Of a stretch of 64,000 nt of DNA, positions 557-53,571 are shown one piece after another (positions within the stretch are counted from its first letter, which is position 1; each line of letters opens with the position of its first letter). Made by a program: the position numbers and the translations under genes. The notes beneath the pieces are model-generated. The model was not told the DNA's origin. It searched no databases and saw nothing but the letters and a program-made list of their open reading frames with translations. Source of the DNA: an uncultured Acidobacteriota bacterium (GTDB lineage Bacteria > Acidobacteriota > Thermoanaerobaculia > Multivoradales > UBA5704); the NCBI GenBank assembly GCA_963770895.1, contig CAVYRF010000002.1, positions 4,320,001-4,384,000 of the forward strand. Direction: 5' to 3'.

Positions 557-3500
557 ATGCAGGTTACAGAGGCCACGGGCGGGCTGGCGGTCGCAGAGCT
601 CCACGCACCGCACGAGCATCCGGTCGAAGCCTTCCTGCAGGCGGCGCTGGCGCGGGTTCTGGGGTGCGACCCCGCCCGCATCGACCGCGCGACGCCGATG
701 GCGTCCTACGGCCTCGATTCGCTGGCGGCGGTCGAGCTGTGCCACGCGGTCGAGGAGGAGCTCGGGGCGGCGCTGGATGTCGCGGACCTGCTGTCCGGCT
801 GTTCCATCGCGGAGGCGGCGCGGCAGGTGGCGGCGCTCGGCGCCGCCGCAAACGGTGCCCGGCAGCGCGGGGCGCCCGGCGATCGCGCCGGCTTCTCCCC
901 CGCCCTCGCCGCCGCCGAATTCCCGCTCAGCCTGGGCCAGCAGGCGCTGTGGATCCTGCATGGGCTGGCGCCCGAAAGCGCCGCCTACGTCATCGCCGGC
1001 GCCGCGCGGCTGGTCGGGGGCGTCGATGCGGCGGCCCTGGGCCGCGCCGTCCGCACCCTGGTGGCACGCCACCCGGCGCTGCGCACGACGTTCGCCAACG
1101 GGCCTGGCGGGCCGGTCCAGCGCGTGCATCCGCCGGCGGCGCCGGCAGCGGCCGCGTGGGCGCGCGAGGACGCCGCGGGCTGGAGCGGCGAGGAGCTCGC
1201 GCGGCGCGTGCGGCAGGCGGCGTTTCGCCCGTTCGACCTGGAGCACGGCCCGGTGCTGCGCGCCGTGCTGTTCGATCGCGGACCGCGCGAGCCCGCGGCG
1301 AGCGTGCTGGTCCTGGCGGTGCACCACATCGCCGCCGACTTCTGGTCGCTGGCGGTGCTGCTGCGCGAGCTGGGGGAGCTCTACGCCGGCGGCGGCGCCG
1401 CCGCCCTGGCCGCTCCCGGCGTGCACGTCGCCGACCTGGTGGCGCGGCAGCGGCAGGAGCTGGCGGCCGGGCGGTACGACCCGATGCTGGCGGCGGCGCG
1501 GCGGCAGCTGGCCGGCGCGCCGCCGCTCGACCTGCCGCTGGACCGCCCGCGGCCGGACCTGCAGACCTTCCGCGGCGCGCGGGTGGGCGGCCGCCTGGGC
1601 CGCGACCTGGCGCTGGCCGCCGCCGCCCTGGCGCGGCGCTGCGACGCGACGCTCTTCACGGTGCTGCTGGCCGCCTTCGAGGTGCTCCTGGCGCGCCACG
1701 GGGGGCAGGAGGACTTCCTGGTCGGAACGCCGACCGCGGGCCGCTCGTCGCGCGCGCTGGCCGGCCTGGTCGGCTACCTGGTCAACCCGGTGCCGCTGCG
1801 GGCCGACCTGGCGGCCGACCCCGACGTCCTGACGCTGGTGGCCCGGGCGCGCCGCGCCACGCTCGACGGGTTGGCGCGGCAGGACCTGCCGTTCACCCTG
1901 CTGGCCGAGGGGCTGGCGGAGGCGCGCGATCCGAGCCGTCCGGCGGTGTTCCAGGCCATGCTCGTGCTCGAACGTTCGCCGGTGCCGGAGCTGGAAGGCC
2001 TGGCTGCCTTCGCCCTGGGCGAGGGCGGCGCCCGCGTCCGCCTCGGCGCCGCCGGCGCCGCTCCGACCGGCGGCGAGCTGACGCTCGAGTCGGTCGCCCT
2101 GGAGCGGTCCGCGGCCCAGGTGGACCTCACGCTGCTCGCCGCCGAGATCGGCGGCGACCTGGCCGCCGCCTTCGAATGGAACCTCGACCTGCTGGACGCC
2201 GCGACGGCGCGGCGCATGTTCGGCCATCTGGTCAACCTGTTGACCGCGATGACCCGCCATCCGGAGCGGCGTCTTTCGGCGCTGCCGATGCTCGGCCCGG
2301 CCGAGGTGCAGCAGGTCGTGCGCGAGTGCAACGACACCGGCCTGGCGCTGGGCGGGGAGTGCCTGCACCAGCTGATCGAAGCGCAGGTCGAGCGCACTCC
2401 GGGAGCGCCGGCGGTGGTCTTCGCCGGCGAGACCCTGACCTACCGCGAGCTGAACGCCCGCGCCAACCGGCTGGCTCTGCACCTGGCGCGGCTGGGGGTG
2501 GGGCCGGAGGTGCGGGTGGGGCTCTGCCTGGAGCGGTCGGCCGAGCTGATCGTGGCCCTGGTCGCGACGCTCAAGGCGGGCGGCGCCTTCGTGCCGATCG
2601 ACCCGTCCTACCCCGCGCCGCGGATCGCCCACATGCTCGGCGACGCCCGCGTGTCCGTGGCGCTCACCGAGGAGCGGATCGCCCCCTTGCTGCCGCCTGG
2701 GGCCGCCCGCACCGTGCTGCTCGACGGCGGCGGCGACCACGACGCGGCCTGGCGGAGCGGACCCGATCCCGGCAACCCGGCCGCGGGTGGCGGCGGCCCG
2801 CTGCGCCTGGCGTACGTCCTGTACACCTCGGGCTCGACCGGCGAGCCCAAGGGGGCGATGAACAGCCATGGCGCCATCGTCAACCGCTTGCGGTGGATGC
2901 AGGAGACGTTCCGGCTGACGGCGGCGGACAGGGTGCTGCAAAAGACTCCGGCCAGCTTCGACGTCTCGGTCTGGGAGTTCTTCTGGCCGCTCGCGACCGG
3001 CGCCTGCCTGGTGGTGGCGCGGCCCGGCGGGCACCTGGACCCCCCCTACCTGCGCGACGAGATCGCCCGCGCCGGCGTCACCACCGTGCACTTCGTCCCC
3101 TCCCTGCTGCAGGTCTTCCTGGAGCAGCCGGGGCTGGAGGCCTGCGCCGGCCTGCGCCGTGTGCTGGTGAGCGGCGAGGCTCTCGGGCGCGATCTTGCCG
3201 AGCGCTTCCAAGAGCGCCTGGGACGGCTGGGGAGCGAGCTGCACAACCTGTACGGTCCGGCGGAAGCGGCGGTGGACGTCACATGGTGGCCCTGCGCGGC
3301 CGCCGGCGACGCGCGCCCGGTGCCGATCGGCAGGCCGATCGACAACGTCCAGATCCACCTGCTGGACCGCCACCTGCGGCCGGTTCCCATCGGCGTCGCC
3401 GGCGAGCTGCACATCGCCGGCGTGCAGGTGGCGCGCGGCTACCTGGGCCGCCCGCGGCTGTCGGCCGAGCGGTTCATCCCGGACCCGTTCGCAGCCGAGC

Positions 3501-19300: not shown

Positions 19301-22300
19301 AGGCGGCGGGTCCGGACCTGGCGCCGGCCGCGTTCGACGCCTGCCTGCCCGGCGCCGGCGACCTGGCCTACGTGCTCTATACCTCGGGCAGCACGGGGCG
19401 GCCCAAAGGGGTCATGGTGGAGCACGGCAGCCTGGCTCACACCCTGGCGGCGGTGCAGGAGGCGTTCGGCGCCGCCGCCGGCGAGCGGATGCCGGTCTTG
19501 GCGCCGGCGACGTTCGACGCCTTCCTGCTGGAGCTGCTGCTGCCGATGGTCGGCGGCGGCACGGCGGTGCTGTTCGCGATCCGGCCGGTCGTCGACATGG
19601 CGCAGCTGCTGGCGGAGCTCGAGCGGTCGACGCGGCTGTTCGCGGTGCCGGCGCTGATGCAGCGGCTGGCGGCGGCCGTGGTCGAGCGCGGGGCCCGCTG
19701 TCCGCGCCTGCGCCAGGTGTTCGTCGGCGGCGACGCGGCGGGGCGCGACCTGCTGCTGGCGATGCGGCAGGCGTTCCCGGCGGCGCGGAGGGTCGTGCTC
19801 TACGGCCCCACCGAGGCGGCCATCGCGGCGACCGGCGAGGAGCCGGACGAAGGGGCGCACAACGGCATCGGCTGGCCGCTGCCGGGGGTGACCGTGGAAG
19901 TGCGGGACGCCGCCGGCGGGGCGGTGCCGGCCGGCGCGGCCGGGGAGCTGTGGCTGGGCGGCCCGGGGGTGGCGCGCGGCTACCTGGACCGCCCTGACCT
20001 GACGGCGGAGCATTTCGTGCCGTCCTGGTCGGGACGCGGCGAGCGGCTCTATCGCACCGGCGACCGGGTCCGCTTCCACGCCAGCGGCCGCCTGGAGTTC
20101 CTGGGCCGGATGGACAAGCAGGTCAAGGTGCGCGGCTTCCGCCTCGAGCCCGGCGAAGTGGAGGCGGCGCTGCTGGCCTGTCCGGGGGTGGCGGCGGCGG
20201 CGGTGCTGGTCGAGCGGCACGGCGCCGGCGACGAGCGGCTGGTGGCCTACGTGGCGGGGGCGGCAGGGACCGCCGTGCCGCAGGGTGCCGAGCTGCGCCG
20301 GTTCGCCGAGTCGCGGCTGCCCGCGTACATGGTGCCGAGCCGTTTCGTCGGCCTGGAGCGGCTGCCGCTGACGCAGCACGGCAAGGTGGACCGGCGCGCC
20401 CTGGCCGAGCTGCGGGCGCGCGGCGCGGAGGAGGCGCCGGCGCAGGCCCCCGCGGCCGGCCTGGAGAGCCTGGTCGCCGGGGTGTTCCAGGAGGTGCTGG
20501 GGGTCGAGCGGGTGGGGATCGCCGACAACTTCTTCGACCTGGGCGGGCACTCGCTGCTGCTCACCGAGGTGCAGAGCCGGCTTTCCAAGCAGCTGGGCGA
20601 AGACGTGCCGCTGCTCGAGATCTTCCGCAACCCCAACGTCGGCGCCCTGGCCCGCGCGCTGGCGGAGCGGCGGGACCCCGGCAGCGGCGCCGCCGCGGCG
20701 AGCCTGGAGGCCCTGCGCCTGGCCGCGCCGGCCGCCGCCGCCGCGGCGCGCGCCGCGGGGCCGGAAGGCCGGGCGGTGGCGATCGTCGGCAGGGCCGGGC
20801 GGTTCCCGGGCGCTCCCGACCTGGAGGCCTTCTGGCGCAACCTGCGCGACGGGGTCGAATCGATCTCCTTTTTCACCGCCGCCGAGCTGGACCTGGCCGG
20901 CGTCGACCGCGAGGTGCGGCGGCTGCCCGGCTACGTCGCCGCCGGCGGGGTGCTTGCGGGGACCGAGCTGTTCGACGCCGGCTTCTTCGACGTCGGACCG
21001 CGCGAGGCGCAGATCATGGATCCGCAGCAGCGGGTGCTGCTGGAGTGCTGCGCCCAGGCGCTGGAGAGCGCCGGCTACGGGGCGGGCAGCCCGGCGGCCG
21101 AGGCGGTGCGCATCGGCGTCTTCGTCGGCGGCGGCGCCAGCAGCTACGCGCTGTTGAACCTGGTCGGCCACCCGGAGTTGGACGGCCTGGAGATGGCGCT
21201 CGGCAACGAGAAGGACTTTTTGGCCACCCGCCTGTCCTACAAGCTCGACCTCAAGGGGCCGGCGCTGACCGTGCAGACGGCGTGCTCCACGTCGCTGGTG
21301 GCGGTGCACCTGGGGGTGCGCAGCCTGCTCGACGGCGAGTGCGAGCTGGCTTTGGCGGGAGGCGTCAACATCAGCCCCTCGCAGGTCGCAGGGTACGTCT
21401 ACCAGGAGGGGAGCGTGGCGTCGCCGGACGGCCACAACCGGGCGTTCGACGCGCGCGCCAAGGGGTCGGTTTCCGGCAACGGCGCCGGGGTGGTGGTGCT
21501 CAAGCCGCTGGCCCGCGCGCTGGCCGACGGCGACACCATCCACGCCGTCATCCTGGGCTCGGCGCTCAACAACGACGGCGCCGGCAAGGTGGGCTTCACC
21601 GCCCCGTCGGAGGAGGGCCAGGCCAAGGTCATCGTCGCCGCGCAGGCGGCCGCGGGGGTGTCGCCGGAGAGCATCGCCTACGTCGAGGCGCACGGCAGTG
21701 CCACGCCGGTCGGCGATCCGATCGAGGTCGCGGCGTTGACGCGGGCCTTCCGGCTGGGCACGGCGCGGCGGGGATTCTGCGCCGTCGGTTCGGTGAAGAC
21801 CAACATCGGCCACAACGGCTCGGCGGCCGGCATCGCCGGCCTGCTCAAAACCGTGCTGGCGCTGGAGCACCGGCAGATCCCGGCGAGCCTGCACTTCGAG
21901 CAGCCCAATCCGCGGATCGATTTTGCGTCGAGCGCCTTCTACGTCAACCGGCAGCTGGCGGAGTGGCCGGCGGGCGAGACGCCGCGGCGGGCGGGGGTGA
22001 GCTCCTTCGGCCTGGGCGGCACCAACATCCACGTCATCGTCGAGGAGGCGCCGGCGCGGCCGGAGACGGCGCCGTCGCGCCCCTGGCAGCCGGTGGTGCT
22101 GTCGGCGCGCACGCCGGCGGCCCTGGAGGCGGCGACCGAGCGGCTCGCGGCGCACCTTGCAGAGCATGCGGAGCTGGACCTGGCCGACGTCGCGGCGACC
22201 CTGGCGACCGGCCGCAAGGGGCACGCCTGGCGGCGGGCGGTCATCTGCCGCGACGCGCGCGACGCGCGGGAGGTGCTGGCGACGCGCGATCCGCAGCGGC

Positions 22301-36630: not shown

Positions 36631-37727
36631 GCGAGCGCGAGCACGGCCTGACCAGGGAGGTGCCGTTCGACGGCGGCGCCTGGGTGTGCGACGCCGCCCA
36701 GTGGCGGGTCGAGGAGCACCTGGGGCGCCGCAGCCTCTACCTCAAGGGCGGCATCGCCACCGTCGCCGGCGAGAACTTCGTCGACGGCAGGCTGGCGGTG
36801 GACGTGGCGTTCGGCGGCGAGCGCGCATTCATCGGCGCCGTCTGGCGCGTCCAGGACGCCGGCAACTACGAGGAGTTCTACCTGCGTCCGCACCAGTCGG
36901 GGAACCCGGACGCCACCCAGTACACGCCGGTGTTCAACGGCGTCTCGGGTTGGCAGCTCTACCACGGCGAGCGCTACGCGGTGCGCGCCGTCCATCCGCG
37001 CGATGCCTGGGTGCGCCTGGAAGTGGTCTTCGCCGGGGCGCGGGCCGAGATCTACCTGGGCGGCGCCGCCCAGCCGGTCCTGGTCGTCGACGACCTCAAG
37101 CGCGAGGTCGCGCCGGGCGGCGTCGGGGTCAGCGCGCTGGATTTCGCTCCCGCGCACTTCTCGAACTTCTCCTTCGCCGCGGCGCCGGCAGCCCCGCCGG
37201 CCCCGCCGGACGCTCGGGAAGGTCCCGCCGCCGCCGGCTCCGCGCCGGCGCCTGGCACCGCCACCGTCCGCCGGTGGTGGGTCTCCGAGGCATTTCGCGA
37301 AAGCTCGCTGGGCGACACGCTCGAGCTTGCCGAAAGCGACCTGGCGGCGCGCACCTGGCAGCCCCTGGTGGCCGAGCCGGGGGGACTTGCCAACCTCGCC
37401 CGCGTGCAGGGGATCGTGCTGGGCAAGGACACCGTGCTGGCGCGCGCCGTGGTGACCGCGCCGCGCGACGGCGTGTGGCGGCTCGACTTCGGCTTCAGCG
37501 ACCGCGTGCGGCTGTTTCTGAACCGCCGCCTGCTCTATCGCGGCGACGACGGCCAGGGCTCGCGCGACTACAGATTTCTCGGCAGCATCGGCTTTTACGA
37601 TTCTTTGTATCTGCCGCTTGTTTGCGGCCGCAACGAAATCGTGATGGCGGTGTCAGAAGACAACCGCGGCGGCTGGGGCGTGCAGGCCCGGTTTGCCGAT
37701 GCCGCGGCACTTGCGTTGGAAGAGTGA
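36627..37727 (+). CDS. Hypothetical protein (366 aa), probably two beta-sandwich domains (ConA/LamG-like plus a C-terminal carbohydrate-binding-like domain)
   Basis: ATG at 36627 overlaps the NRPS stop (ATGA). Aromatic-rich, non-random sequence (NYEEFYLRPHQSGNPDATQYTPVFNG; FGFSDRVRLFLN). The fold call is tentative. Confidence 0.7.
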   Translation: MSEREHGLTREVPFDGGAWVCDAAQWRVEEHLGRRSLYLKGGIATVAGENFVDGRLAVDVAFGGERAFIGAVWRVQDAGNYEEFYLRPHQSGNPDATQYTPVFNGVSGWQLYHGERYAVRAVHPRDAWVRLEVVFAGARAEIYLGGAAQPVLVVDDLKREVAPGGVGVSALDFAPAHFSNFSFAAAPAAPPAPPDAREGPAAAGSAPAPGTATVRRWWVSEAFRESSLGDTLELAESDLAARTWQPLVAEPGGLANLARVQGIVLGKDTVLARAVVTAPRDGVWRLDFGFSDRVRLFLNRRLLYRGDDGQGSRDYRFLGSIGFYDSLYLPLVCGRNEIVMAVSEDNRGGWGVQARFADAAALALEE

Positions 37728-37751
37728 ACAGACAGGAGAGGAAAAACCGTC

Positions 37752-39137
37752 ATGCTTGAGATCATTCAGGAACCATTGCCGGGCGCGCCAGGGGTGACGG
37801 AGTTGCCGGAGCCTGTTGCCGCAGGGGCGCACGCGGCGGAGGCGCCGGCGCCTCCGGAGCTGTCCCGCAAAGGGGTCATCATCAACTATCCGATGTTCCG
37901 CTTCTGGCACAAGGAGGCGGTGGCGGAAGGCCAGCGGCAGCAGCCGCTCAATGTTTACATCCACATGCCGTACTGTATTCAACGCTGCGCCTATTGTTAC
38001 TTCAAGACCACCACCTTGAAGGAAAACCGCCTGGCCGACATCGATCAGTACGTGCGCTCAGTCTGCGCCGAGATGGCGCTGGGCTCGCGCCACTTCGCTC
38101 TCGGGCAGCGGCCGGTGGAAACGGTCTATTTCGGCGGCGGCACGCCGACGCTGATGTCGGAAGAGAACATCGACCTGCTGTTCGCGGCGTTGCGCGAGAA
38201 CTTCACGCTGGCCGACCCGCAGATCACCTTCGAAGGCGAGCCGGTGACGCTGACCGAGCGCAAGGCGGCGCTGCTGGCGCGGCACAAGGTCAACCGCATC
38301 AGCCTGGGCATCCAGTCGTTCAAGGAGGAGATCGTCTTCCAGACCGGCCGCCGCGACACCGAGGAGCAGACCTTCCGCGCCATCGAGCTGGCCAAGGCGA
38401 CCGGCGCCGAGGTGAACGTCGACCTGATCAGCGGCCTGGCCGGCGAGACGCTCGACACCTGGGCCTATTCGGTGCGGCGGGCGATCGAGGCCGACGTGCA
38501 CAACATCACCATTTACAAGCTGGAGCTTTACGCTAATACACCGTATTACACGGCGGAGAAGCACCAGGAGATCGCGCTGCCCGACGAGACGCGGGAGCTG
38601 GCGTTCATCGAGTACGCCGTCGCCGAGCTCAAGCGTCACAATTATCTCCCCGTCAATACCTTCACCTTCACCAAGGGCGGCGCCCACGACCAGCTCAACA
38701 CGCGCAAGCGCTGGCAGGGGGCCGACAGCTACGCCTGCGGCGTTTCTGCCTACGGTTCGCTGGGCGACTGGCAGTTTCAGAACACCAACGAAATTCCGGC
38801 CTATACCGCGGCGATCGCGCGCAACGAGCTGCCCACCGTCCGCGCCTACCGCAACACCAGCTTCGATCGCATCGTGCGCGAAGCGGTGATGGGGATCAAG
38901 CTGGTGGCGATCGATCACCACCACTTCCGCGACAAGCACGGCCTGGACCTGCTGCAGGTCTGCGCCGCCGACCTGGCGCGGCTGGCGAGCGACGGGTTCC
39001 TGGTCGTCGACGAGCGGGAGATCCGCCTGACCGACCGCGGCATCATCTATGGCGACTACGTGAGCCGGGTTCTGGAAAGCTCGCTCAAAAAGCTCACCGG
39101 CGGCCACGCCGCCAGCCGCACGCGGGTGCATCGCTGA
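37752..39137 (+). CDS. HemN-like (class C) radical SAM protein
   Basis: YIHMPYCIQRCAYCYF (CxxxCxxC), YFGGGTPT, NRISLGIQSF, DLISGL and a HemN-like C-terminus (IRLTDRG); RBS AGGAG upstream. Confidence 0.9.
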   Translation: MLEIIQEPLPGAPGVTELPEPVAAGAHAAEAPAPPELSRKGVIINYPMFRFWHKEAVAEGQRQQPLNVYIHMPYCIQRCAYCYFKTTTLKENRLADIDQYVRSVCAEMALGSRHFALGQRPVETVYFGGGTPTLMSEENIDLLFAALRENFTLADPQITFEGEPVTLTERKAALLARHKVNRISLGIQSFKEEIVFQTGRRDTEEQTFRAIELAKATGAEVNVDLISGLAGETLDTWAYSVRRAIEADVHNITIYKLELYANTPYYTAEKHQEIALPDETRELAFIEYAVAELKRHNYLPVNTFTFTKGGAHDQLNTRKRWQGADSYACGVSAYGSLGDWQFQNTNEIPAYTAAIARNELPTVRAYRNTSFDRIVREAVMGIKLVAIDHHHFRDKHGLDLLQVCAADLARLASDGFLVVDEREIRLTDRGIIYGDYVSRVLESSLKKLTGGHAASRTRVHR

Positions 39138-39183
39138 GCGGCGGGCGGCCAGGTCCACGATCGCGCAATGGAAAGGATTGGCA

Positions 39184-39468
39184 ATGACATCGGATGAAGT
39201 GCTGGAAGGGTTGAAGCGCATCATTGTCGACGACCTGGACGTCGACGTCGAGTACCAGGACCTGTCGCCGGACGTGCCGCTGTTCGAGGGCGGACTGGGC
39301 CTCGATTCGGTGGTGCTGGTCGAGCTCATCAGCTGCATCGAGAAACGTTTCGACGTCATGGTGTCGGACGACCTGCTCACCGTCGAAACGTTCAAGGACC
39401 TGCAGTCGGTGGCGCAGGTGATCGGCACGCTGCTCGCCGCGGTCGAGCTGCCGGCGGGGCGTGGGTGA
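39184..39468 (+). CDS. Free-standing acyl/peptidyl carrier protein 1
   Basis: Small acidic protein with LFEGGLGLDSVVLVEL; ATG follows GAAAGGA. Confidence 0.9.
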   Translation: MTSDEVLEGLKRIIVDDLDVDVEYQDLSPDVPLFEGGLGLDSVVLVELISCIEKRFDVMVSDDLLTVETFKDLQSVAQVIGTLLAAVELPAGRG

Positions 39469-41108
39469 GCGATAGCCGGGCCGTGCCGGCCCCGCCCGCT
39501 CTGACCGCCAAGCCGGCGGCAGCGCCGCGCAAGCCCGACTTCTTCATCGTCGGCGCTCCGCGCTGCGGCACCACCACGCTGTACGCTGCGCTGCGCCAGC
39601 ACCCGCAGATCTTCGCCTCGGTGCACAAGGAGCCGCACTTTTTCGGCAGCGACCTGACGCCGCTGCCGGGCGCCATCCGCGACGAGGCGTCGTATCTCGC
39701 CCTGTTCGCCGGCGCCGGCGACCGCCCTCGCGCCGGCGAGAGCTCGGTGCACTACCTGTCGTCGCGGCGGGCGCCGTTCGAGATCCGGGCCTACGCGCCG
39801 GCGGCGCGCATCCTCATCCTGCTGCGCGAGCCGGTGAGCATGGCGCACTCCCTCTACGCGCTCTTTACCCGCACCGGCAACGAGGAGCTGCCGACCTTCG
39901 AGGCGGCGCTCGCGGTGGAGGAGGAGCGCCGCGCCGGGCGCCGCATCCCGCCGGGCGCCTATTTCCCGGAGGGCCTGCTGTACACCGACGGCGCGCGCTA
40001 CGCGGCGAAGGTCGAGCGCTGGCTGGAGGTGTTCGGCCGCGAGCAGGTGCACTGCATCCTGTTCGACGACCTGGTGCGCGACACCGCGGCGGTCTATCGC
40101 CGGGCGCTGGCGTTCCTCGGCGTCGATGCCGGCTTCACCGCCGAGCTCGAGCCGCGGCGGGCCGCCGAGCTCGCCCGCGTGCAGACGATCCGGCAGCTGC
40201 GCCACCTGCCGCCCGAGGTGCGGCAGCGCATGCAGTTCGACCAGATGAAACTTCACCAGGGGCCGCCCCGCCCGGAGGTCGACCCGGCGCTGGCCGGGCG
40301 GCTGCGCGCGCTGTTCGCCGCCGACGTGGCGCGCCTGGGGCAGCTGCTGGACCGCGACCTCTCGGCGTGGAGCCGCGGCGAGGCGGTGCCGGCGGTGGCG
40401 GCGACTCCGGCGCCGGCCGCCGCGGACAGCAGGGCCGAGATCTTCGCCTGCCTGCGGGCGCTGCGCCAGATCCCGCCCGAGCTGCGCGCGCGGCAGGACC
40501 GGGTGGAGCCGATGGAGCGCAAGTTCGCGCGCTGGCAGCGGCTGCGGCTGCCCGATCTGCCGCTCGAGCAGCGCGCCTGGGATCCGCAGTGGGCCAGCTG
40601 GTTTGCCGGCGAGCAGGAGCGGATCGCCGCGGCGCTCGCGCCGCGCACGGCGCGCATCGAGCACTTCGGCAGCACCGCGGTGCCGGGCCTGGGATCGAAG
40701 AACATCATCGACATCGCGGTGGGCGTCGACGGCGCCGAAGGCGTGGACGGCGAAACCGAGGCGGTCGAAGCGGCGCTCGGGGCGATCGGCTACGTCGCCT
40801 ACGGCAACAGCCCGATCGATCCCCAGACGCGCTGGCTGTGGCGGCTGGAAGGCGACCGCGCCTTCGCTGTCCACCATTGCGATCGCCGCCGCACCTGGCT
40901 GGATGAACAGACCGACCTGCGCGACTACCTGTGCGCCTGCCCGGAGGAGCGCGAACGCTACGCCTCGTTGAAGCGTCGTCTCGCCGCCGAGAGCGGCACA
41001 AAATTTCTGCGCTACAGCGTCGGCAAGATGGCGCTGTCGCTCGAGCTGGTCGCCCGCGCGCTCAGCTGGCGGGAGGCAGGAGGCGGCCGTGCGGTGGGAA
41101 CACGGTGA
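39465..41108 (+). CDS. Sulfotransferase - GrpB-family fusion protein
   Basis: N-terminal PAPS motifs FIVGAPRCGTTTL, KEPHFF and REPVSMAHS; C-terminal IEHFGSTAVPGLGSKNIIDI...LRDYL...YASLKRRLA matches the GrpB pattern. Confidence 0.82.
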   Translation: MSDSRAVPAPPALTAKPAAAPRKPDFFIVGAPRCGTTTLYAALRQHPQIFASVHKEPHFFGSDLTPLPGAIRDEASYLALFAGAGDRPRAGESSVHYLSSRRAPFEIRAYAPAARILILLREPVSMAHSLYALFTRTGNEELPTFEAALAVEEERRAGRRIPPGAYFPEGLLYTDGARYAAKVERWLEVFGREQVHCILFDDLVRDTAAVYRRALAFLGVDAGFTAELEPRRAAELARVQTIRQLRHLPPEVRQRMQFDQMKLHQGPPRPEVDPALAGRLRALFAADVARLGQLLDRDLSAWSRGEAVPAVAATPAPAAADSRAEIFACLRALRQIPPELRARQDRVEPMERKFARWQRLRLPDLPLEQRAWDPQWASWFAGEQERIAAALAPRTARIEHFGSTAVPGLGSKNIIDIAVGVDGAEGVDGETEAVEAALGAIGYVAYGNSPIDPQTRWLWRLEGDRAFAVHHCDRRRTWLDEQTDLRDYLCACPEERERYASLKRRLAAESGTKFLRYSVGKMALSLELVARALSWREAGGGRAVGTR

Positions 41109-41806
41109 AACGAGTTGCCTTGGTGACGGGCGCGAACCGCGGCATCGGGTTCGAGACCTGCCGGCAGCTGGGCGCGGCGGGCTATTCGATCGTGCTCACC
41201 GCGCGCGATGCGGACAAGGGCAACCGGGCTTTGACGGCGCTGCGCCAGCAGGGTGTCGAGGCGCGCTTCCACGTGCTCGACGTGACCGATCCAGCGAGCG
41301 TGGCGCGGGCCGCTGCCTGCGTGAGCGGCGAGCTGGGGCGGCTGGATGCGCTGGTCAACAATGCGGCGATCGCCATCGACAGCAAGGAATCGCTGGCGCG
41401 GGTCGACCTGGAGATCCTGCGGCGGACGCTCGACACCAACCTGGTCGGTGCGCTCAGCTGCTGCCAGGCGTTTCTGCCGCTCATGCTGCAGCAGGGCTAC
41501 GGCCGCATCGTCAACGTGTCGAGCGGGCGGGCCTCGTTCACCAGGCTGGCCGCCGGCGGGCCGTGCTATCGCATTTCGAAGGCCGCGCTCAACGCCCTGA
41601 CGGTGATCCTCGCCGACGAGGTGAAGGAGAGCAACATCCTGGTCAACGCCATGACGACGGGATGGGTGCGCACCCGCATGGGCGGGCTGCTCACGGCGCC
41701 GCGCTCGCTCGCCGAAGGGGCGGACACGGCGGTCTGGCTGGCGATGCTGCCCGACGGCGGGCATCGCGGCAAGTTCTTCCGGGACCGGCAGGAGTTTCCG
41801 TGGTGA
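41105..41806 (+). CDS. Short-chain dehydrogenase/reductase (carbonyl reductase-like)
   Basis: GTG start overlaps the previous stop; VTGANRGIG, NNAAI, VNVSS, YRISK and GWVRTRMGG. Confidence 0.92.
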   Translation: MKRVALVTGANRGIGFETCRQLGAAGYSIVLTARDADKGNRALTALRQQGVEARFHVLDVTDPASVARAAACVSGELGRLDALVNNAAIAIDSKESLARVDLEILRRTLDTNLVGALSCCQAFLPLMLQQGYGRIVNVSSGRASFTRLAAGGPCYRISKAALNALTVILADEVKESNILVNAMTTGWVRTRMGGLLTAPRSLAEGADTAVWLAMLPDGGHRGKFFRDRQEFPW

Positions 41807-41843
41807 TGCGACCAACCGGCCAGCCGCGGCCGCGGACGGTGCG

Positions 41844-43313
41844 ATGAGCTCGCTGCCTGTAGCGACGCTGCCGGCGCACGGCCTGGCCAGCTTCTGGGAC
41901 GAGACGCGCCTGCGCGCCGACGAGGCCAGGTCGGCCACCGTCCGGCCCGCCGCCGAAACGGTGTCCTGGCGCATCGCGCTCGAAGACGTCCTCAAGATCG
42001 GCTATGGGATCCAGACGCAGTCGTGGGTCGTGGCGGGCGCCCGGCGGCGCATCGTGTGGCGCACCGTGCCGTCGGCCGGCGGGCTCTATCCGTTCGAGGT
42101 GATCGCCAATGTCTTCGGCGACGCCGCCTACCTCTGGGACGTGGACGCGGCGCGGTTGGTGCCGCTCGACCGCGAGCCGCTGTCGCGCGCCGACGTCGCG
42201 GCGGCCGGCATCGTCGACGATCCGGGCGCCCCCCTGGCGGCGCTGCTGATCCTGGTCGCCCGTCCCTGGCTGAGCATGGTCAAGTACCGCCGGCGCGGCT
42301 ACACCTACACGCACCTGGACGTGGGCCACGTGACCACCAACCTGGCGCTCTACACGACGGCCCTGGGCTACGCTCCGGCCGTCCACCTGCGCTTCCGCCG
42401 CGTCGCCCTGGCCGAGCGCCTGCAGCTCGCCGGGCTCTGCCGCGAGCCGCTGGCGGTGCTCTCCTTCGCCGGCGACGAAGCGGGCGTGGTCGCGCCGGTC
42501 GGGCCGGAAGCCGCGGCCGGCGCCGAGCGCCGCGGCCTGGCGCCGCCCGACCTGCCCGAGATCCTGGCCTGGGAGTCGCTGGAAGGCATCCGCTCGTTCG
42601 AGGGCGCGCCGGCGCCGCCGGCCGCGGCCGAGAGCACACCGCTGCTGGCGGAGCCGGTGGGGATCGACAACCCGGTCTCCCTGCCGCTGCCCGCCGGCAG
42701 TCCCCTGTCCTGGGCCGCGGCGCAGCTGCGCGCGGCGATCCTGCGCCGCCGTTCGGCCAAGGGCTTCCGCGGCGAATCGCTCAGCCTGACGCAGATCGGG
42801 CGGTTGCTTGCCGCCGTGCGGACCGCCGGACTGGTGACCGACTGTCCCGCCGACGAGGCCGTGCGGCTGGGCGTGCGCCTGGTGGCGACCGACGTCGAGG
42901 GTCTGGCCGGCGTCTTCGCCTACTCGCCGGAGAACCACGCCCTGCATCAGCTCGGCGGTTTGACCCACGATCCCCACACGGCCTGCATGCGGCAGGAGAT
43001 CGCCAGGAAAATGTCGGCCCTGGTGGTCCTCCACGCGCCGCTCTCCCAGCTGCTCGAACGGCGGGGGCACGCGGCCTTCGCCGAGCTGCACTTCCGCGCC
43101 GGCGAGCTCGGCCAGCACCTGCACCTGGCGGCGGCGCGGCTGGGCATCGGCATCACCTGCCTGGGCGGCTTCGACGGGCACCGCTGTGCCGCGCTCGCCT
43201 ACCTCGAGGGCGGCGAAGAGGTGGTCTACGTGCTGCTGCTCGGCGCGGCCGACGAGTCGGCGACCAAGCACGACCGGCTGAGCGTCGCCTTCAGTCACGG
43301 GTATTCGACCTAG
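41844..43313 (+). CDS. SagB/ThcOx-like FMN nitroreductase-family dehydrogenase with two tandem domains
   Basis: RTVPSAGGLYP and KYRRRGYTYTHLDVGH in the first domain; ILRRRSAKGF and AGELGQHLHLAAARLGIGITCLGGF in the second. Confidence 0.8.
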   Translation: MSSLPVATLPAHGLASFWDETRLRADEARSATVRPAAETVSWRIALEDVLKIGYGIQTQSWVVAGARRRIVWRTVPSAGGLYPFEVIANVFGDAAYLWDVDAARLVPLDREPLSRADVAAAGIVDDPGAPLAALLILVARPWLSMVKYRRRGYTYTHLDVGHVTTNLALYTTALGYAPAVHLRFRRVALAERLQLAGLCREPLAVLSFAGDEAGVVAPVGPEAAAGAERRGLAPPDLPEILAWESLEGIRSFEGAPAPPAAAESTPLLAEPVGIDNPVSLPLPAGSPLSWAAAQLRAAILRRRSAKGFRGESLSLTQIGRLLAAVRTAGLVTDCPADEAVRLGVRLVATDVEGLAGVFAYSPENHALHQLGGLTHDPHTACMRQEIARKMSALVVLHAPLSQLLERRGHAAFAELHFRAGELGQHLHLAAARLGIGITCLGGFDGHRCAALAYLEGGEEVVYVLLLGAADESATKHDRLSVAFSHGYST

Positions 43314-43348
43314 TGGCCAGCCCAGATCACTCACATCCGGGCAGCGCC

Positions 43349-46005: not shown

Positions 46006-46035
46006 GGCGGCGGCACACCAGGAAAGGACTGCCGG

Positions 46036-46311
46036 ATGAGCGACGAGGACCTCCAGGCCATCAAGCAACGGGTGCAGCGCATCGTCTTTCTGGCCGCGGG
46101 GGGGAAGATCAGCGAAGCGGACCTGGCGAAGTCCGACGCCGACCTGCGCGAGATCGGGCTCGATTCGCTCGGCTATCTCAACCTGCTCGAGGGCCTGGAG
46201 CGGACCTTCGGCGTCAGCATCGACCTGGACCAGGAGGCCAGCCATCACTTCCTGCACACCATCGACAACCTGGTGAGCTACCTGGCGGCGCGACGGGGGC
46301 CGGTGGCGTGA
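46036..46311 (+). CDS. Free-standing carrier protein 2
   Basis: LREIGLDSLGYLNLLEGLERTFGV; RBS GGAAAGGA upstream. Confidence 0.9.
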   Translation: MSDEDLQAIKQRVQRIVFLAAGGKISEADLAKSDADLREIGLDSLGYLNLLEGLERTFGVSIDLDQEASHHFLHTIDNLVSYLAARRGPVA

Positions 46312-47612: not shown

Positions 47613-48325
47613 ACATCGCCCTTGTCGGCTACGGCCGGATGGGGCAGGTTGTCGAGGAGGTGGCGGCGACGCAGGGGGTGGGGTGCGTCGCGCACTTCGA
47701 CCGCAGCCGCCCCTTGGCGGCCGACGGCTCCGCCCGCCAGGCTCTGCAGGACGTCGCGGTGCTGATCGACTTTTCCGTGCCGGACGCGGTCGCCGGCACG
47801 GTGCGCGCGGCGGGCGAGCTGGGCATCCCCTTGGTGATCGGCACGACCGGCTGGCACGCCCAGCTGGACGACGTCCGCGCCGCCGTTCTGGCCTCGCGTG
47901 CCGGGGTCGTGCACGGCGCCAACTTTTCGCTCGGCGTCAACGTCTTCTACCGGCTCGCCGAGCAGGCCGCCCGGCTGCTGGCAGGCTTCGACGGCTACGA
48001 CCCGTTCATTCAGGATTGGCACCCGCGCACCAAGCGCGACGCTCCGTCGGGCACGGCGCTGGAAGTCCAGCGGCGGATGGCGCGCCACCTGGGCCAACGG
48101 GAGGTGCCCATCACCTGCACCCGCTCCGGTTACGTCCCTTCGGAGCACAGGGTCGGTTTCGACTCGGAGGCCGACACCCTCGTCATCGAGCACCGGGCGC
48201 GCAACCGGCGAGGCCTGGCCGCCGGAGCGCTGCTCGCCGCGCGGTGGATCGCCGGCCGGTCCGGCTTCTACGACTTCCAGGACGTCATGGCCGACGTCCT
48301 GCCGGGGGACGGCACGCCGGGCTGA
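47609..48325 (+). CDS. dapB: 4-hydroxy-tetrahydrodipicolinate reductase homolog (divergent, inside the cluster)
   Basis: MNIALVGYGRMG, LIDFS, VIGTTG, ANFSLGVN, HPRTKRDAPSGTA and EHRARNRRGLAAGA. Confidence 0.85.
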   Translation: MNIALVGYGRMGQVVEEVAATQGVGCVAHFDRSRPLAADGSARQALQDVAVLIDFSVPDAVAGTVRAAGELGIPLVIGTTGWHAQLDDVRAAVLASRAGVVHGANFSLGVNVFYRLAEQAARLLAGFDGYDPFIQDWHPRTKRDAPSGTALEVQRRMARHLGQREVPITCTRSGYVPSEHRVGFDSEADTLVIEHRARNRRGLAAGALLAARWIAGRSGFYDFQDVMADVLPGDGTPG

Positions 48326-48350
48326 GGCCCACGGCGTCCCTGCGCTCGCC

Positions 48351-48734
48351 ATGCCGCTTGAAACCCTCTGCGCCGGGCTCGACGCCGCAGCGACCCGCAC
48401 GGTGACGCTGGACATGAGCCCGCCGCACGTGCGGGGGATCCTTGCGACCTCGCGGTTGATCGGTCTGTGTGAGGACACCTGTCTGGAGCTGCTCGATCGC
48501 CACCTTTGCGCCGGCGAAACTTCGCTCGGCACCCGCGTCGACTTTCAGCACATCGGCGTCGCCTGGGCCGGCGACGAGATCAGCATCCGCGTCCACCTGA
48601 CGCGCGTCACCCAGAAGCGCCTGCTCACCTTCGCGGTCGAGGTGGAGGCTCCCGGAGGCCTGGTCAGCACCGGCACCCATCAGCGCCTGATCGTCGATCG
48701 CGCGCGCTTCGCCCGCTCCGCCGCCCCCGCTTGA
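48351..48734 (+). CDS. Hotdog-fold thioesterase, FlK (fluoroacetyl-CoA thioesterase) family
   Basis: ILATSRLIGLCEDTC, TSLGTRVDFQH and GTHQRLIVDRARF; Thr-Glu-His triad positions are retained. Confidence 0.8.
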   Translation: MPLETLCAGLDAAATRTVTLDMSPPHVRGILATSRLIGLCEDTCLELLDRHLCAGETSLGTRVDFQHIGVAWAGDEISIRVHLTRVTQKRLLTFAVEVEAPGGLVSTGTHQRLIVDRARFARSAAPA

Positions 48735-48831
48735 CCGGCGCCTGGAGTCGGCGCGCCTGTGGGCCCCGGGGCCGGGGCGCGCGTCGGGCCGGCCGGGCGG
48801 CGGCAATCGCCGCGTGATACGTATACAGCGC

Positions 48832-51255
48832 ATGCGTTCACGCTGGCTCGCCGCGAGCCTGCCCGCCGCTCTCCTGCTGGTCTTCGCCTGGCGCGGTGTG
48901 CTCGCCATGCACGCGGACGGCGCCACCGTCGACGAAGCGTCGCACCTGGGCTACGGCGAGCGCGCGCTGTCGGAGGGGACGTTCCTGCGCACGCGCGAGC
49001 TCAATTCCAAGATGCCGGTGTCGGCGCTCAACGCCATGCCGGTCGTGATCGCGCGGCATTGGCGGCCGGGGCTGGCATGGCCGGCGGCGCTGTTCGTGGC
49101 CCGTCTGCCGTCGCTGCTGCTCGGCGTGCTGCTGGGCTGGTTGATCTGGCTGTGGGCGCGGGCTCTGTTTGGCTGCTGGAGCGGCATCCTGGCCCTCTTC
49201 CTGTACAGCTTCTGTCCCAACGTGCTGGCGCACACCCATCTGGTGACGACCGATATCTCGACGGCCCTGGCGATGTTCGCCGCCGTGTTCTTCCTGTGGC
49301 GCTACCGGCAGCGGCCCGGTCGCGGGCGGTTGTGGGCCGCCGCCGCGGTGTTCGGGGCGGCGCAGCTGACCAAGGCGACGGCGCTGCTGCTGGCGCCGCT
49401 GTTCGGCGCGATCCTGTTGGTCGGCGCGCTGCGCCAGGTGATGCTGCAGGAGGGCGCGGCGGCGGGCGCCGGACCGGCGGGCGGCGGGGCAGCGGAGGAC
49501 GGGGCAGCGGAGGACGGAGCCGCAGACGGCGGGGCAGCGGATGGCGGAGCGGTAGACGGCGGGGCAGCGGAGGACGGGGCGGTAGACGGCGGGGCAGCGG
49601 AGGACGGGGCCGCAGACGGCGGGGCAGCGGAGGACGGGGCAGCAGACGGCGGGGCAGCGGATGGCGGAGCGGTAGACGGCGGGAGGACGGGGCGCAGGGG
49701 CGCCGGCGGCGCGCGCGTGGGGGAGCGGGCGCGCCGGCTGGGTGCCGAGCTGTGGCGGAGCGCGCCGCTGGCGGCTGCCTGCGCGGTCGCCGCGGTGGTG
49801 GCGCTCAACCTGGGGTTTGCCGGCGAAGGCACGTTCACTCCGCTGCGCCGGTATGCCTTCATCAGCGACAGCTTCCAGTCGCTCGCCAGGGTGCCGGTGG
49901 TGCGCGACCTGCCGCTGCCGCTCCCCTACGCCTACGTCCAGGGGCTGGACATGGTGGCCTACGATTCGCGGGCGCCGGGCTGGAGCTACCTCCATGGGCA
50001 GTACAGCCAGCACGGCTTCGCCGCGTACTTTCTGCTGGCGCTGCTGGTCAAGGTGCCGCTCGGCACGCAGCTGCTGGCGGCGCTGGCGCTGGGGCTGTGC
50101 CTGGCGGGGCGGGCGCGCGCGCCGGGCGGCGAGGAGTTTCTGGCCGTTCCGGTGTTGCTGCTGCTGGCCTACTTCACCCTGGCGTTCAAGCTGGATATCG
50201 GCGTGCGCTACGTGCTGCCGGTGCTGCCGTTCCTGTTCGTCTTCAGCTCCCGCGTCGCAGCCAGGCCGCGGGGACGGGCGGGCGCGCCGGCTGGCGCGGA
50301 TGCAGCGGCGCAGTTTGCCGAGGGGGTCAACGCGCTCCGCCGGGCGGCGGCGCCGCGCTGGCTGGCGCCGGCGGCGGGCGCGCTGGCGCTGTGGGTGGCC
50401 CTTGCGTCCTGGTCGGTCCATCCGCACTACCTGGTCTATTTCAACGAGCTGGCGGGGGGCCCGGACAACGGCTGGCGCTGGCTGATCGATTCCAACCAGG
50501 ATTGGGGCCAGGACAGCGAGCGCGTGCGCCAGGTCTACGTCCCAAGCAGCCCGGTGCACGTGTTCGTCGACCCTGGCGGGCCGCTCGTCGGGCGCATCGC
50601 CGTCGGGATTTCCAACCTTGTCGGGCGCGACCCTGCGGCCGCGGCGCGCATGGCCTGGCTGCGCGACAACTTCAAGCCGATCGCGGTGATCGGCGGCTCC
50701 TGGAAGGTCTTCGACGTGCACGAAGACGACCTGGCGCGCTGCTGCGCCGGACTGCCGCGCGTCCAGGTGATCGACGACCTGGCGAGCGACCTGGCGCCGG
50801 GCGGCCAAGTGGTCGGCGGCGGCGACGGGGTGAACGTGCGCTACCTGGAGCAGCTGAACGACGGCCTGCTCGGCGTCGGCGCGCCGCTGGACGCGGTGCG
50901 CACGGCGCCGGTGCAACCGCACCCGGTGCGTGCCTGGTTCGGCGTCGTCTGGCCGGGAGACCGCATCGTCGCGCGCGTCGTGGCCTATCCGGGGTTTTCC
51001 ATCCGCGAACCCGCAGCCCGCCGCTTTCTGGCCCTCGACTACGTATTCCAGCTGTGGGACGGAGCCGCGTGGCACGACCTTCCCGGCACCCGTCAGCACG
51101 ACAACCAGCAGCTTCGCCTGGAGCACCGCTTTGCACCTCGCGCCATGCGCGGCATCCGCCTGGTGATCGAACGCGAGCGCAACGACCAGGGCACCCTGGA
51201 ACCGGGCGGCGGCTACCGCGCCGCCTGCCTGGAGCTGGCCGCCTACCCGCAGTAG
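48832..51255 (+). CDS. ArnT/PMT (GT39/GT83-like) membrane glycosyltransferase with a C-terminal discoidin-like domain
   Basis: ATVDEASHL, multiple TM helices, PNVLAHTHLVTTD, IGVRYVLP, YFNELAGG and DSNQDWGQD; alternative GTG start at 48814. Confidence 0.8.
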   Translation: MRSRWLAASLPAALLLVFAWRGVLAMHADGATVDEASHLGYGERALSEGTFLRTRELNSKMPVSALNAMPVVIARHWRPGLAWPAALFVARLPSLLLGVLLGWLIWLWARALFGCWSGILALFLYSFCPNVLAHTHLVTTDISTALAMFAAVFFLWRYRQRPGRGRLWAAAAVFGAAQLTKATALLLAPLFGAILLVGALRQVMLQEGAAAGAGPAGGGAAEDGAAEDGAADGGAADGGAVDGGAAEDGAVDGGAAEDGAADGGAAEDGAADGGAADGGAVDGGRTGRRGAGGARVGERARRLGAELWRSAPLAAACAVAAVVALNLGFAGEGTFTPLRRYAFISDSFQSLARVPVVRDLPLPLPYAYVQGLDMVAYDSRAPGWSYLHGQYSQHGFAAYFLLALLVKVPLGTQLLAALALGLCLAGRARAPGGEEFLAVPVLLLLAYFTLAFKLDIGVRYVLPVLPFLFVFSSRVAARPRGRAGAPAGADAAAQFAEGVNALRRAAAPRWLAPAAGALALWVALASWSVHPHYLVYFNELAGGPDNGWRWLIDSNQDWGQDSERVRQVYVPSSPVHVFVDPGGPLVGRIAVGISNLVGRDPAAAARMAWLRDNFKPIAVIGGSWKVFDVHEDDLARCCAGLPRVQVIDDLASDLAPGGQVVGGGDGVNVRYLEQLNDGLLGVGAPLDAVRTAPVQPHPVRAWFGVVWPGDRIVARVVAYPGFSIREPAARRFLALDYVFQLWDGAAWHDLPGTRQHDNQQLRLEHRFAPRAMRGIRLVIERERNDQGTLEPGGGYRAACLELAAYPQ
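49483..49677 (+). repeat. 13 x 15-bp tandem repeat encoding (G/D)GA(A/V)(E/D)
   Basis: GGCGGGGCAGCGGAG / GACGGGGCAGCGGAG units, in frame within the glycosyltransferase. Confidence 0.9.
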
Positions 51256-52433: not shown

Positions 52434-52526
52434 GACCTTGCTCTCCTGGTAAACCCGGCGTCCGGGTAGGAGCAGTAGGCCACGCGGCGAGAGACCGCCG
52501 CTATCAGATTCTTTAGCGACCTGTCA

Positions 52527-52614: not shown

Positions 52615-52635
52615 ATCATTTGCCCTGCTCGGGGT

Positions 52636-53466: not shown

Positions 53467-53571
53467 GGCTTGTGGAGGAGGGCCTGGGCGCAACACCCGC
53501 AAAGCAACGCTCGCGCCCGGCGGGCTCAGTATCAGTATATGCGGTCGCGCCGGGCGCCCGGGAGATCTCGC

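Follow-up and report, generated by a model that had tools for sequence, protein, structure and literature searches.

A putative orphan NRPS-PKS gene cluster ending in a lineage-specific condensation domain in an uncultured Acidobacteriota bacterium

The locus and its assembly line

Here we describe a giant biosynthetic locus in a 64,000-nucleotide stretch of DNA, referred to below as the window, from an uncultured soil bacterium of the Thermoanaerobaculia, within the Acidobacteriota (assembly GCA_963770895.1, contig CAVYRF010000002.1). At its core lie two overlapping genes, A and B, which encode a hybrid of a nonribosomal peptide synthetase (NRPS) and a polyketide synthase (PKS). We regard the locus as probably an intact orphan cluster of ~60 kb in which the finished chain is freed by the condensation (C) domain that closes gene B, and the product predicted from its domains should be a peptide of nine residues that is acylated and contains a single polyketide unit. 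A preliminary description of the window had placed the cluster at 557-51255 (~50 kb); the genes of that span are present, but it missed a same-strand part of the operon that extends ~9 kb 5′ of the window, so that the locus as a whole covers ~C2:4311067-4371255 (the prefixes C1: and C2: denote contig coordinates, and plain numbers are positions in the window).

The host genome comprises 8.16 Mb in 3 contigs at a G+C content of 70.8%, and the window has a G+C content of 75%. Long spurious open reading frames (ORFs), such as one of 6,007 aa on the antisense strand, are common at this G+C, and the real frames were therefore picked by codon-position G+C, which in true genes is about 0.8 at the first position (GC1), 0.5 at the second (GC2) and at least 0.9 at the third (GC3). 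Genes A and B, which share 4 nt at their junction, carry the same coding signature as the rest of the genome (GC3 0.94 and 0.95, GC2 0.52-0.53), with Pfam support at E=0 for Condensation and 6e-296 for AMP-binding. Downstream of gene B, at 36627-51255, follow 13 genes on the same strand, orfC to orfO, where about 12 mostly coupled tailoring genes had first been counted; overlaps of 1-4 nt occur at 8 of the 14 junctions from A through O. The start codons of these downstream genes are our own choice, and several frames for this stretch in the plain ORF list were wrong, leaving blanks in the Pfam results that the GC3 analysis mended. Compared over window positions 1-51255, the cluster has a G+C of 74-79% against 70.8% genome-wide, and linkers rich in Ala, Gly and Arg may account for the rise. 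The DNA sequencing runs that match the cluster are soil metagenomes, each with a share of at most 0.36; no RNA run was among those listed, which tells neither for nor against expression.

Mapping by Pfam and core motifs gives gene A the order T0-C1-A1-T1, where T is a carrier and A an adenylation domain. Gene B consists of five C-A-T modules, a PKS module made up of a ketosynthase (KS), an acyltransferase (AT), a region of 530 aa and an acyl carrier protein (ACP), then three further C-A-T modules and a last C domain. The line totals 10 C and 9 A domains, 10 carriers of the NRPS type and 1 ACP, the complement of a modular NRPS, which bears out the earlier reading of nine A domains and one PKS module over two overlapping genes. 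HHxxxD is kept in all ten C domains, and Pfam matched no thioesterase (TE), epimerisation (E) or methyltransferase domain in genes A and B. Intactness is indicated by a frame of 32.3 kb without a stop, a GC3 of 0.95 and the retention of all catalytic motifs.

The pocket codes of the A domains were read from a fresh MAFFT alignment, at positions that we take to follow the GrsA-PheA numbering, and this independent alignment reproduced all nine exactly as first read (Table 1). Within the window the identity is 89-90% between A3 and A7 and 72-76% among C3, C5 and C7, which suggests a recent duplication of modules. In the proposed order of events, gene B would add Thr and then four more residues to the chain, the PKS module would insert one malonate-derived two-carbon unit after residue 6, and three residues would follow that unit, the last of them picked by a pocket of the type D-x-R-H.

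Table 1. Pocket codes of the nine A domains and, for positions 3-9, of the orthologous synthetase in the Thermoanaerobaculia genome G401
Position	Window	Likeness	G401	Comparison
A1	DVWHLSLVDK	Ser-like		
A2	DFWNIGMVHK	Thr-like		
A3	DAFFLGATFK		DMVQSGLVYK	
A4	DIFHFGLILK		DIFHFGLILK	identical
A5	DAFFMGLVCK		DAFLLGVTLK	
A6	DALFFGLIAK		DALFFGLIFK	one code residue apart
A7	DVFFLAATFK		DIFHFGLILK	
A8	DVETSGGVIK		DVETSGGVIK	identical
A9	DARHFVFLIK		DVRHFALLAK	same type

The PKS module has what a type I (cis-AT) module needs: the catalytic Cys-His-His of the KS, the active-site Ser of the AT, set in an elbow that reads GYSLGE instead of GHSxG, and the ACP. Its AT also carries HAFH, which we take to be a malonyl-type motif. 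Across the 530 residues between AT and ACP no Pfam match to a ketoreductase (KR) was obtained, and yet the region aligns throughout with the KR regions in the KS-AT-KR-ACP modules of proteins P0036, P0002 and P0003 (26-32% identity). It retains the structural subdomain. VGRRAGF stands where the Gly-rich NADPH loop should be, with 11 residues deleted, a second deletion of ~40-45 residues takes out the segment with the catalytic Lys, and the catalytic Tyr and Asn have become Trp and Arg; judged from this alignment the domain, here called KR0, is a catalytically dead ketoreductase. Since the same degenerate state is kept in a paralogue, P0035 (54% identical here), and in the G401 orthologue (70%), we read KR0 as a conserved non-catalytic domain. 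P0035 itself is a 5,587-aa NRPS-PKS hybrid with methyltransferase domains (contig C1, ~1175545-1177074), with a dead KR that is 50-54% identical. With its ketoreductase dead, the module would keep the beta-keto group unless a free-standing reductase acts, and orfG, which directly follows the terminal C domain in the related loci L021, L033 and L022, is the obvious candidate for such a trans-ketoreduction, as a hypothesis from gene position and family.

The terminal condensation domain and chain release

The preliminary description called the megasynthetase TE-less. The synthetase indeed holds no TE, but this is no defect, for a dedicated C domain closes the line. The thioesterase family PF00975 has 32 matches genome-wide, none of them within 100 kb of the cluster (the closest on either side are at C2:4127348 and C2:4489937), and we therefore read the terminal C domain as the probable release catalyst, so that a lineage-specific C domain, not a thioesterase, would release the chain. 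The domain keeps HH...D, in the form HHVASDW, and shares only 31-38% identity with the remaining nine C domains. The genome encodes another giant NRPS, likewise without a TE, whose final domain is a paralogue 74% identical to it. This second synthetase lies at C2:2175731-2209474 and measures 11,248 aa from stop to stop; ten A codes were read in it, and it ends in T-C(HHVASDW) after a last code of DLYDLSLVWK.

The domain was compared with 1.84 billion representative proteins, and the 150 proteins listed were re-scored per domain, giving 736 high-scoring segment pairs (HSPs) to C domains. Among these 150 proteins the top three HSPs (66, 58 and 58% identity) stop 1, 10 and 23 residues short of the C-terminus, and the HSPs that come next reach 42% at most; only 32 of the 736 HSPs lie equally near a protein end. 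A scan of species-representative genomes turned up relatives of the terminal C domain at 15 loci (67-77% identity), 14 of them in four metagenome-assembled genomes (MAGs) of Thermoanaerobaculia (4, 7, 2 and 1 loci) and one in ‘Holophagales bacterium UBA5704’, and within the searched scope the clade was found solely in these two groups. In every one of the 15 the ORF stops 0-45 residues past the clade domain, and a carrier motif lies 48-63 residues before it in 10, the remainder being cut by contig ends or missed by the pattern. Judged by these sequence relatives, the terminal C domain is a member of a dedicated, lineage-specific terminal clade. Protein P0173 (1,010 aa) consists of two terminal-clade C domains, 53% and 66% identical to that of the window, with no other motif, and is maybe a fragment or a stand-alone protein.

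The clade is coupled to a recurrent last A domain. Fourteen termination modules had a last A domain that could be examined (L022, L026, L030, L031 and L032 were left out, having no readable A domain), and in 10 of the 14 its code is of the D-x-R-H type: the window, L020, L021, L024, L025, L027, L029, L033, L034 and P0125, with the variants DARHFVFLIK, DPRHLVLRAK, DPRHIILRAK, DVRHFALLAK and DARHLSLMTK. The others are DLYDLSLVWK, in L028 and in the paralogue within the genome, DIFHFGLILK in L023, and the misaligned, unreadable code of P0207. Pockets of the D-x-R-H type occur in the microcystin A domains for acidic residues, and presumably select amino-dicarboxylic residues here too.

Some features weigh against release by the terminal C domain. 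Its HHVASDW departs from the canonical HHxxxDG, with Trp in the place of the Gly that some clade members have there, the glycopeptide X-domain (4tx2) is among its PDB matches (9.5e-37), and either of two enzymes at the locus could free the chain instead: orfN, a hotdog thioesterase within the operon, or an alpha/beta hydrolase just downstream on the opposite strand (51343-52275, −). The terminal C domain might then be structural, or dock or recruit a partner as the X-domain does, with release left to orfN, to the hydrolase or to a TE elsewhere, and we consider this rather unlikely. HH...D is kept in every aligned member of the clade, and the clade recurs 4-7 times per MAG, always in terminal position and beside varied neighbours. 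orfN was found in just one related locus, and there as an opposite-strand fragment, so the clade is accompanied by no shared trans-acting releaser; the hydrolase lies outside PF00975, and its best NCBIfam matches are haloalkane-dehalogenase-like.

Release by the terminal C domain, the reading we prefer, has bacterial parallels. A C domain that releases the chain by adding a free amine is shown for module 13 of the glidonin line, and amine-adding release is proposed for the C-terminal C domains of malleobactin and bicornutin synthesis (PMC10587159). In these systems, as here, the C domain that follows the last loaded carrier stands in for TE chemistry, and our domain agrees in its terminal position after T, a likeness of description and position that gives aminolytic release a precedent in mechanism; the glidonin domain, however, sits within a C-A*-T-TE module, whereas the one described here is the very last domain. 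In fungi, terminal C (CT) domains macrocyclise the chain and carry the motif SHxxxD, as outlined in part of a further source (PMC10510592), and TqaA (PDB 5dij) likewise places a domain of the C fold at the end of the line instead of a TE. A fungal-type CT domain was ruled out, as the motif is HHVASDW and not SHxxxD, and the nearest relatives are ordinary bacterial C domains (Txo1, 1.2e-59, against TqaA, ~1e-9).

If the C domain does release the chain, a rough split puts a free amine slightly ahead of an internal nucleophile (Ser1, Thr2 or an amine) as the acceptor, and water behind both. A bolder proposal, which we hold to be improbable though by no means negligible, is that Thermoanaerobaculia of the UBA5704 group evolved a termination module, C-A(D-x-R-H)-T-C(HHVA[S/A]D[W/G]), present 4-7 times per genome, that replaces the TE and carries out a release reaction new for bacterial NRPSs; cyclisation via a C-terminal amino-dicarboxylic residue, or coupling to a sulfated amine made by the cluster, would be examples. 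If true, the terminal-C clade would be a portable new off-loading tool. Paired as it mostly is with a D-x-R-H pocket, the clade is a candidate for TE-independent release of possible use in NRPS engineering.

Chain initiation and relatives of the cluster

The start of the line resembles the start of lipopeptide synthetases. The best matches of T0-C1, at 38-47% identity, are T-C pairs at about residues 600-1150 of 6 related synthetases, and the first ~590 residues of these 6 proteins are typical fatty acyl-AMP ligase (FAAL) domains. From this homology, and with the usual fused FAAL missing, gene A resembles a lipoinitiation module whose loading takes place in trans. A stand-alone adenylate-forming enzyme, either orfJ or an AMP-ligase encoded upstream, would load a carboxylic acid onto T0, and C1 would acylate Ser1 as its FAAL-T-C homologues suggest. 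Daptomycin-type lipoinitiation employs a FAAL, an ACP and a specialised C domain, in the outline given by part of one account (PMC9113097). The likeness lies in the carrier directly before the first C domain, in the Ser-activating module that comes next here, and in the homology of T0-C1 to FAAL-linked T-C pairs; the cluster differs in having no FAAL and in its weak likeness to solved starter C domains.

A number of observations at this end of the line, and in the family at large, count against our reading of the locus. No FAAL was found in or near the cluster, and with the closest 311 kb off the loader of T0 is a guess; all 5 strong FAAL homologues of the genome lie outside the cluster, which thus lacks the FAAL-ACP-C set, and its two stand-alone adenylate-forming enzymes are only ~25-30% identical to FAALs. 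The matches of C1 to starter C domains of solved structure are poor (~1e-7 for RzmA and CDA-C1). C2, the first C domain of gene B (window 4312-5700), has motifs of the type that joins a D- to an L-residue (DCL; LSPVQAGILFH and HHLILDGWS), although module 1 has no E domain. The substrate names rest on general code tables, in which only Ser and Thr have standard matches, and beyond these two the prediction is soft. Finally, gene order is permuted in one related locus, L027 (MAG SHSU.bins.256), which reads terminal-C synthetase end, MacB, gene A orthologue, orfC orthologue. As for C2, the motif of dual E/C domains is HH[I/L]xxxxGD according to part of one source (PMC10510592), and it is absent from C2, which reads HHLILDGWS.

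Some of this might suggest that the line runs from B to A, with the N-terminal C domain of B as the starter and its terminal C domain condensing the chain onto a unit borne by T0: gene B ends in a C domain and gene A opens with a T, C2 is atypical, and in L027 gene A sits downstream of the terminal-C synthetase. We find this very improbable. Gene A would then close on T1 and lack any means of release; the homologues of T0-C1 are T-C pairs placed after FAAL domains at the N-termini of 6 synthetases; a single polypeptide, P0125, has a C1-type domain first and a terminal-clade domain last; translation of gene B is coupled to that of gene A in this genome; and Asp235, required for an alpha-amino acceptor, is missing from the stand-alone ligases (shown for orfJ). 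The locus L027 shows, apart from this, that genes A and B need not adjoin or be translationally coupled in the family.

With the order A then B retained, the line can be compared with its relatives. In the Thermoanaerobaculia MAG G401, a 40-kb contig carries an open frame that runs off the contig end after at least 9,216 aa; it matches residues 1310-10768 of gene B in a single collinear HSP (67.2% identity over 9,574 columns, covering 9,205 aa) and keeps the same KR0 and the same GYSLGE AT. The pattern of pocket codes (Table 1) is as would be expected of congeners. Downstream of its synthetase the genes are ordered G-C-D-E-F-H-I-J-K-L-M, followed by an orthologue of the upstream AMP-ligase, at 55-79% identity except for orfL (40%). 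Orthologues of T0-C1 occur at 73-81% identity in 4 of 5 MAG genomes, L033 holds G-H-I-J-K-L-M-C, L029 has the three transketolase genes and the sulfotransferase directly after a terminal C domain, and L027 and L045 each have an orthologue of the MacB-type permease (76-77%) immediately ahead of that of gene A. Since the order is shuffled but the content conserved, we treat the upstream genes as part of the cluster and gene order as not fixed. On this comparison the cluster is one member of a gene-cluster family whose relatives are known only from uncultured MAGs. These orthologues surfaced only in the scan of species-representative contigs; the nearest sampled relatives of the same family or order (G266, G365, G176, G005 and G083) hold no orthologue, the best matches being 50% for gene A and 42% for the terminal C domain, and the first three have 96-150 module-sized NRPS matches each. 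The host genome is itself exceptionally rich in assembly lines, with most of the 32 TE matches lying inside frames of 1,600-11,000 aa.

A dead KR and the lack of a FAAL or TE in the cluster might be taken as marks of a decaying or silent relic that makes nothing. However, the frame of gene B runs for 10,772 codons without a stop, catalytic motifs are intact throughout, and the collinear orthologue at 67% identity shares the same ‘defects’, with KR0 kept in a paralogue too, which indicates selection; we give the idea of a relic hardly any credence. We find it just as unlikely that a product has already been recorded, in MIBiG or in the literature, for this cluster or one closely homologous to it. 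Among 5.8 billion proteins the best non-self match of the PKS module is 57% identical over 59% of the query, and no homologue with a name beyond generic annotations was found; the relatives at 67% identity or more are all MAGs of an uncultured lineage; and the parts at hand of two reports on such Acidobacteria contain no MIBiG-linked or characterised NRPS products (PMC9723581, PMC13083261). The suspicion that this is not a characterised pathway, and that the host group is chemically under-explored, has thus held up: the close homologues are unnamed or generically named MAG proteins, and the best relatives all come from MAGs of the host's own class, the uncultured Thermoanaerobaculia. The literature searched, with many subscription journals outside its scope, offered no characterised NRPS product from Acidobacteriota.

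How unusual the cluster is can be judged against what has been described. Giant orphan NRPS/PKS clusters beside MacB pumps, with no MIBiG links, are reported for soil Acidobacteria rich in biosynthetic gene clusters (BGCs), Ca. Angelobacter, in the available part of that study (PMC9723581), and Thermoanaerobaculia of the order UBA5704 have been singled out as BGC-rich, with only modifications of ribosomally synthesised and post-translationally modified peptides characterised, the first from the phylum, in the corresponding portion of another (PMC13083261). They share with our locus a soil or uncultured acidobacterial host, very large NRPS(-PKS) genes and an adjoining MacB-type gene. Angelobacter (Gp1) is a separate lineage, in which the largest ORF spans 24 kb against 32.3 kb here (PMC9723581, in the part covered), and a terminal-C module, a KR0 and the present tailoring set are not described in those parts of either report. 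The word ‘unusual’ in the preliminary description therefore stands insofar as no characterised relative was found, but giant orphan clusters of this build were already on record and the family is conserved. The kind of system is already known, and the cluster is not categorically new. What appears new, on the sequence comparisons above, is a strictly terminal, lineage-restricted C clade coupled to a recurrent last A domain, and with it a conserved dead KR, a lipoinitiation module that seems to be loaded in trans, and a tailoring set that is conserved but chemically opaque. The dead KR and the trans-loaded lipoinitiation depart from textbook rules and affect automated product prediction. A complete template on a single contig, together with a collinear orthologue, makes product prediction, refactoring and comparative analysis feasible, and the cluster is a good target for genome mining and enzymology.

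Tailoring, upstream and flanking genes

The features of the window are collected in Table 2.

Table 2. Features of the cluster in the window
Feature	Position	Strand	Evidence
MacB-type ABC permease, 3′ part (MacB_PCD x2 + FtsX); gene starts upstream of the window at L001:18087; likely exporter	1..534	+	FtsX 7.6e-18; MacB_PCD 1e-38 upstream
Gene A, T0-C1(HHIAADF)-A1(DVWHLSLVDK)-T1, 1,252 aa	557..4315	+	Pfam, motifs, code
Gene B, modules 2-6, PKS module, modules 8-10, terminal C; 10,772 aa	4312..36630	+	
KS and AT of the single PKS module	20770..23385	+	ketoacyl-synt 4.9e-68; Acyl_transf_1 2.8e-45
KR0, degenerate ketoreductase-derived domain, gene B aa ~6390-6920	23479..25071	+	alignment
ACP of the PKS module	25075-25266	+	directly after KR0
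Terminal condensation domain (HHVASDW), proposed release catalyst	35212..36627	+	Pfam Condensation 2.6e-72
orfC, 366 aa, putative two-domain all-beta protein (lectin/DUF1080-like)	36627..37727	+	language-model atlas, fold matches
orfD, HemN-like (class C) radical SAM enzyme	37752..39137	+	Pfam Radical_SAM + HemN_C
orfE, free-standing carrier protein, 94 aa	39184..39468	+	PP-binding 5.3e-10
orfF, N-terminal sulfotransferase + C-terminal GrpB fusion	39465..41108	+	Pfam; PDB 3rnl, 2nrk
orfG, FabG-like short-chain dehydrogenase/reductase (SDR), candidate trans-acting ketoreductase	41105..41806	+	adh_short 5.5e-48
orfH, SagB-type (nitroreductase-fold, FMN) dehydrogenase	41844..43313	+	TIGR03605; PDB 3eo7
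orfI, acyl-CoA dehydrogenase (ACAD)	43313-44515	+	Pfam
orfJ, adenylate-forming ligase without Asp235	44512-46005	+	Pfam, alignment
orfK, carrier protein	46036-46311	+	Pfam
orfL, probable divergent ACAD-fold protein	46308-47612	+	fold search of model
orfM, DapB paralogue	47609-48325	+	TIGR00036
orfN, FlK-like hotdog thioesterase	48351-48734	+	FlK 5e-21; PDB
orfO, 813-aa membrane protein, PMT_2 (ArnT/PMT-like glycosyltransferase)	48814..51255	+	PMT_2 2.4e-13

The first of the downstream genes, orfC, has no Pfam match at E<0.01 and no evident signal peptide; a language-model atlas places it at 0.99 with DUF1080-like clusters, and its structure model (pLDDT 51) matches jelly-rolls and is too poor for a meaningful fold assignment. 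Orthologues at 60-75% identity are found in L021, L027 and L033. For orfD the ChuW/HutW model gives 2.4e-59, under its cut-off, and the PDB matches are HemN (5.7e-33) and the methyltransferase NocN (5.3e-20). The fusion protein orfF matches PDB 3rnl at 8.4e-41 and, in its GrpB part, 2nrk; the fusion is kept in L021 (77%, residues 22-542) and was not seen among the matches listed for 400 other Acidobacteriota genomes. The preliminary description spoke of a possibly sulfated product, and sulfotransferases are indeed present, orfF and another upstream. A designation of orfF as a natural-product sulfotransferase was set aside, its PDB matches being heparan-sulfate 3-O-sulfotransferases and a bacterial sulfotransferase that is itself uncharacterised, which support no specific substrate.

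The TIGR03605 match of orfH scores 103 bits against a cut-off of 78.4 bits. By sequence orfI is a generic ACAD, with FkbI only at 4.7e-14 and at about rank 49, and orfJ has Asn in place of Asp235 and is therefore most likely no activator of an alpha-amino acid. A pyrrolyl-carrier cassette for I-J-K was considered and rejected, given 58-60 bits for prolyl-carrier dehydrogenase models with cut-offs of 500-650 and the absence of Asp235 from orfJ. No family match to orfL was found by sequence, BLASTP against orfI and PDB sequences returned nothing, and 400 sampled Acidobacteriota genomes hold no real homologue (three weak low-complexity matches in 401). Its AlphaFold model, built from a three-sequence alignment (pLDDT 62, pTM 0.62), has a helical, beta, helical layout; Foldseek gives 273 PDB matches at E<=0.001, with E down to 4.5e-9, the top ones are all acyl-CoA dehydrogenases, and the best is a subunit of the heteromeric ChsE4-ChsE5, with which a weak language-model lead agrees. 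On the strength of this model orfL is probably a divergent ACAD-fold protein. orfM reaches 127 bits with the dapB model TIGR00036 (cut-off 122 bits), and a second DapB, 47% identical, is encoded elsewhere in the genome. No orthologue of orfO was seen in the related loci examined, and its membership of the cluster is uncertain.

The upstream genes on the same strand encode the AMP-ligase, a DegT-type aminotransferase, the second sulfotransferase and the MacB-type permease, as well as a transketolase split into one N-terminal and two paralogous C-terminal subunits. In the mechanism that we propose, carrier-based side pathways (radical SAM enzyme, ACP and sulfotransferase/GrpB; SDR, SagB-like enzyme, ACAD, ligase, ACP, ACAD-like protein and DapB) would supply or modify building blocks, the upstream set of transketolase, aminotransferase and sulfotransferase would do likewise, and the MacB-type pump would export the product. 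As hypotheses drawn from family membership, I-J-K-L with G, H and M may make a building block tethered to an ACP, the HemN-like enzyme may modify an enoyl- or acyl-carrier intermediate, and the sulfotransferases may sulfate.

Pathways to ACP-tethered extender units include that of zwittermicin, where ZmaJ/H/G/I form aminomalonyl-ACP, and the hydroxymalonyl-ACP pathway FkbH-K, each with an adenylating enzyme, a carrier and two dehydrogenases. The cluster resembles these in having ligase J, ACP K, ACAD I, ACAD-fold L and SDR G beside a single PKS module, but differs in that orfI is a generic ACAD, that orfJ without Asp235 is an unlikely serine loader and that the AT appears to be of the malonyl type (HAFH). 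The likeness is a lead only.

Several other genes lie near the cluster. Further upstream, at L001:5631-10992 (−), is a separate cluster with genes for a class II lanthipeptide synthetase (DUF4135 + LANC_like, 1,096 aa) and for an ABC transporter. LanM-type clusters of Thermoanaerobaculia have recently been characterised, as part of one report sets out (PMC13083261). Beyond orfO, at 51343-58401, the alpha/beta hydrolase already mentioned is followed by an AraC regulator (−), a DUF1570/TPR gene (+) and a second MacB/FtsX permease (−); the regulator or this permease may serve the cluster. At 61085-63814, finally, a TIR-AAA (STAND-like) gene precedes a TPR-rich gene with DUF7779, a pair that possibly serves NLR-like defence or signalling and would be unrelated to the cluster.

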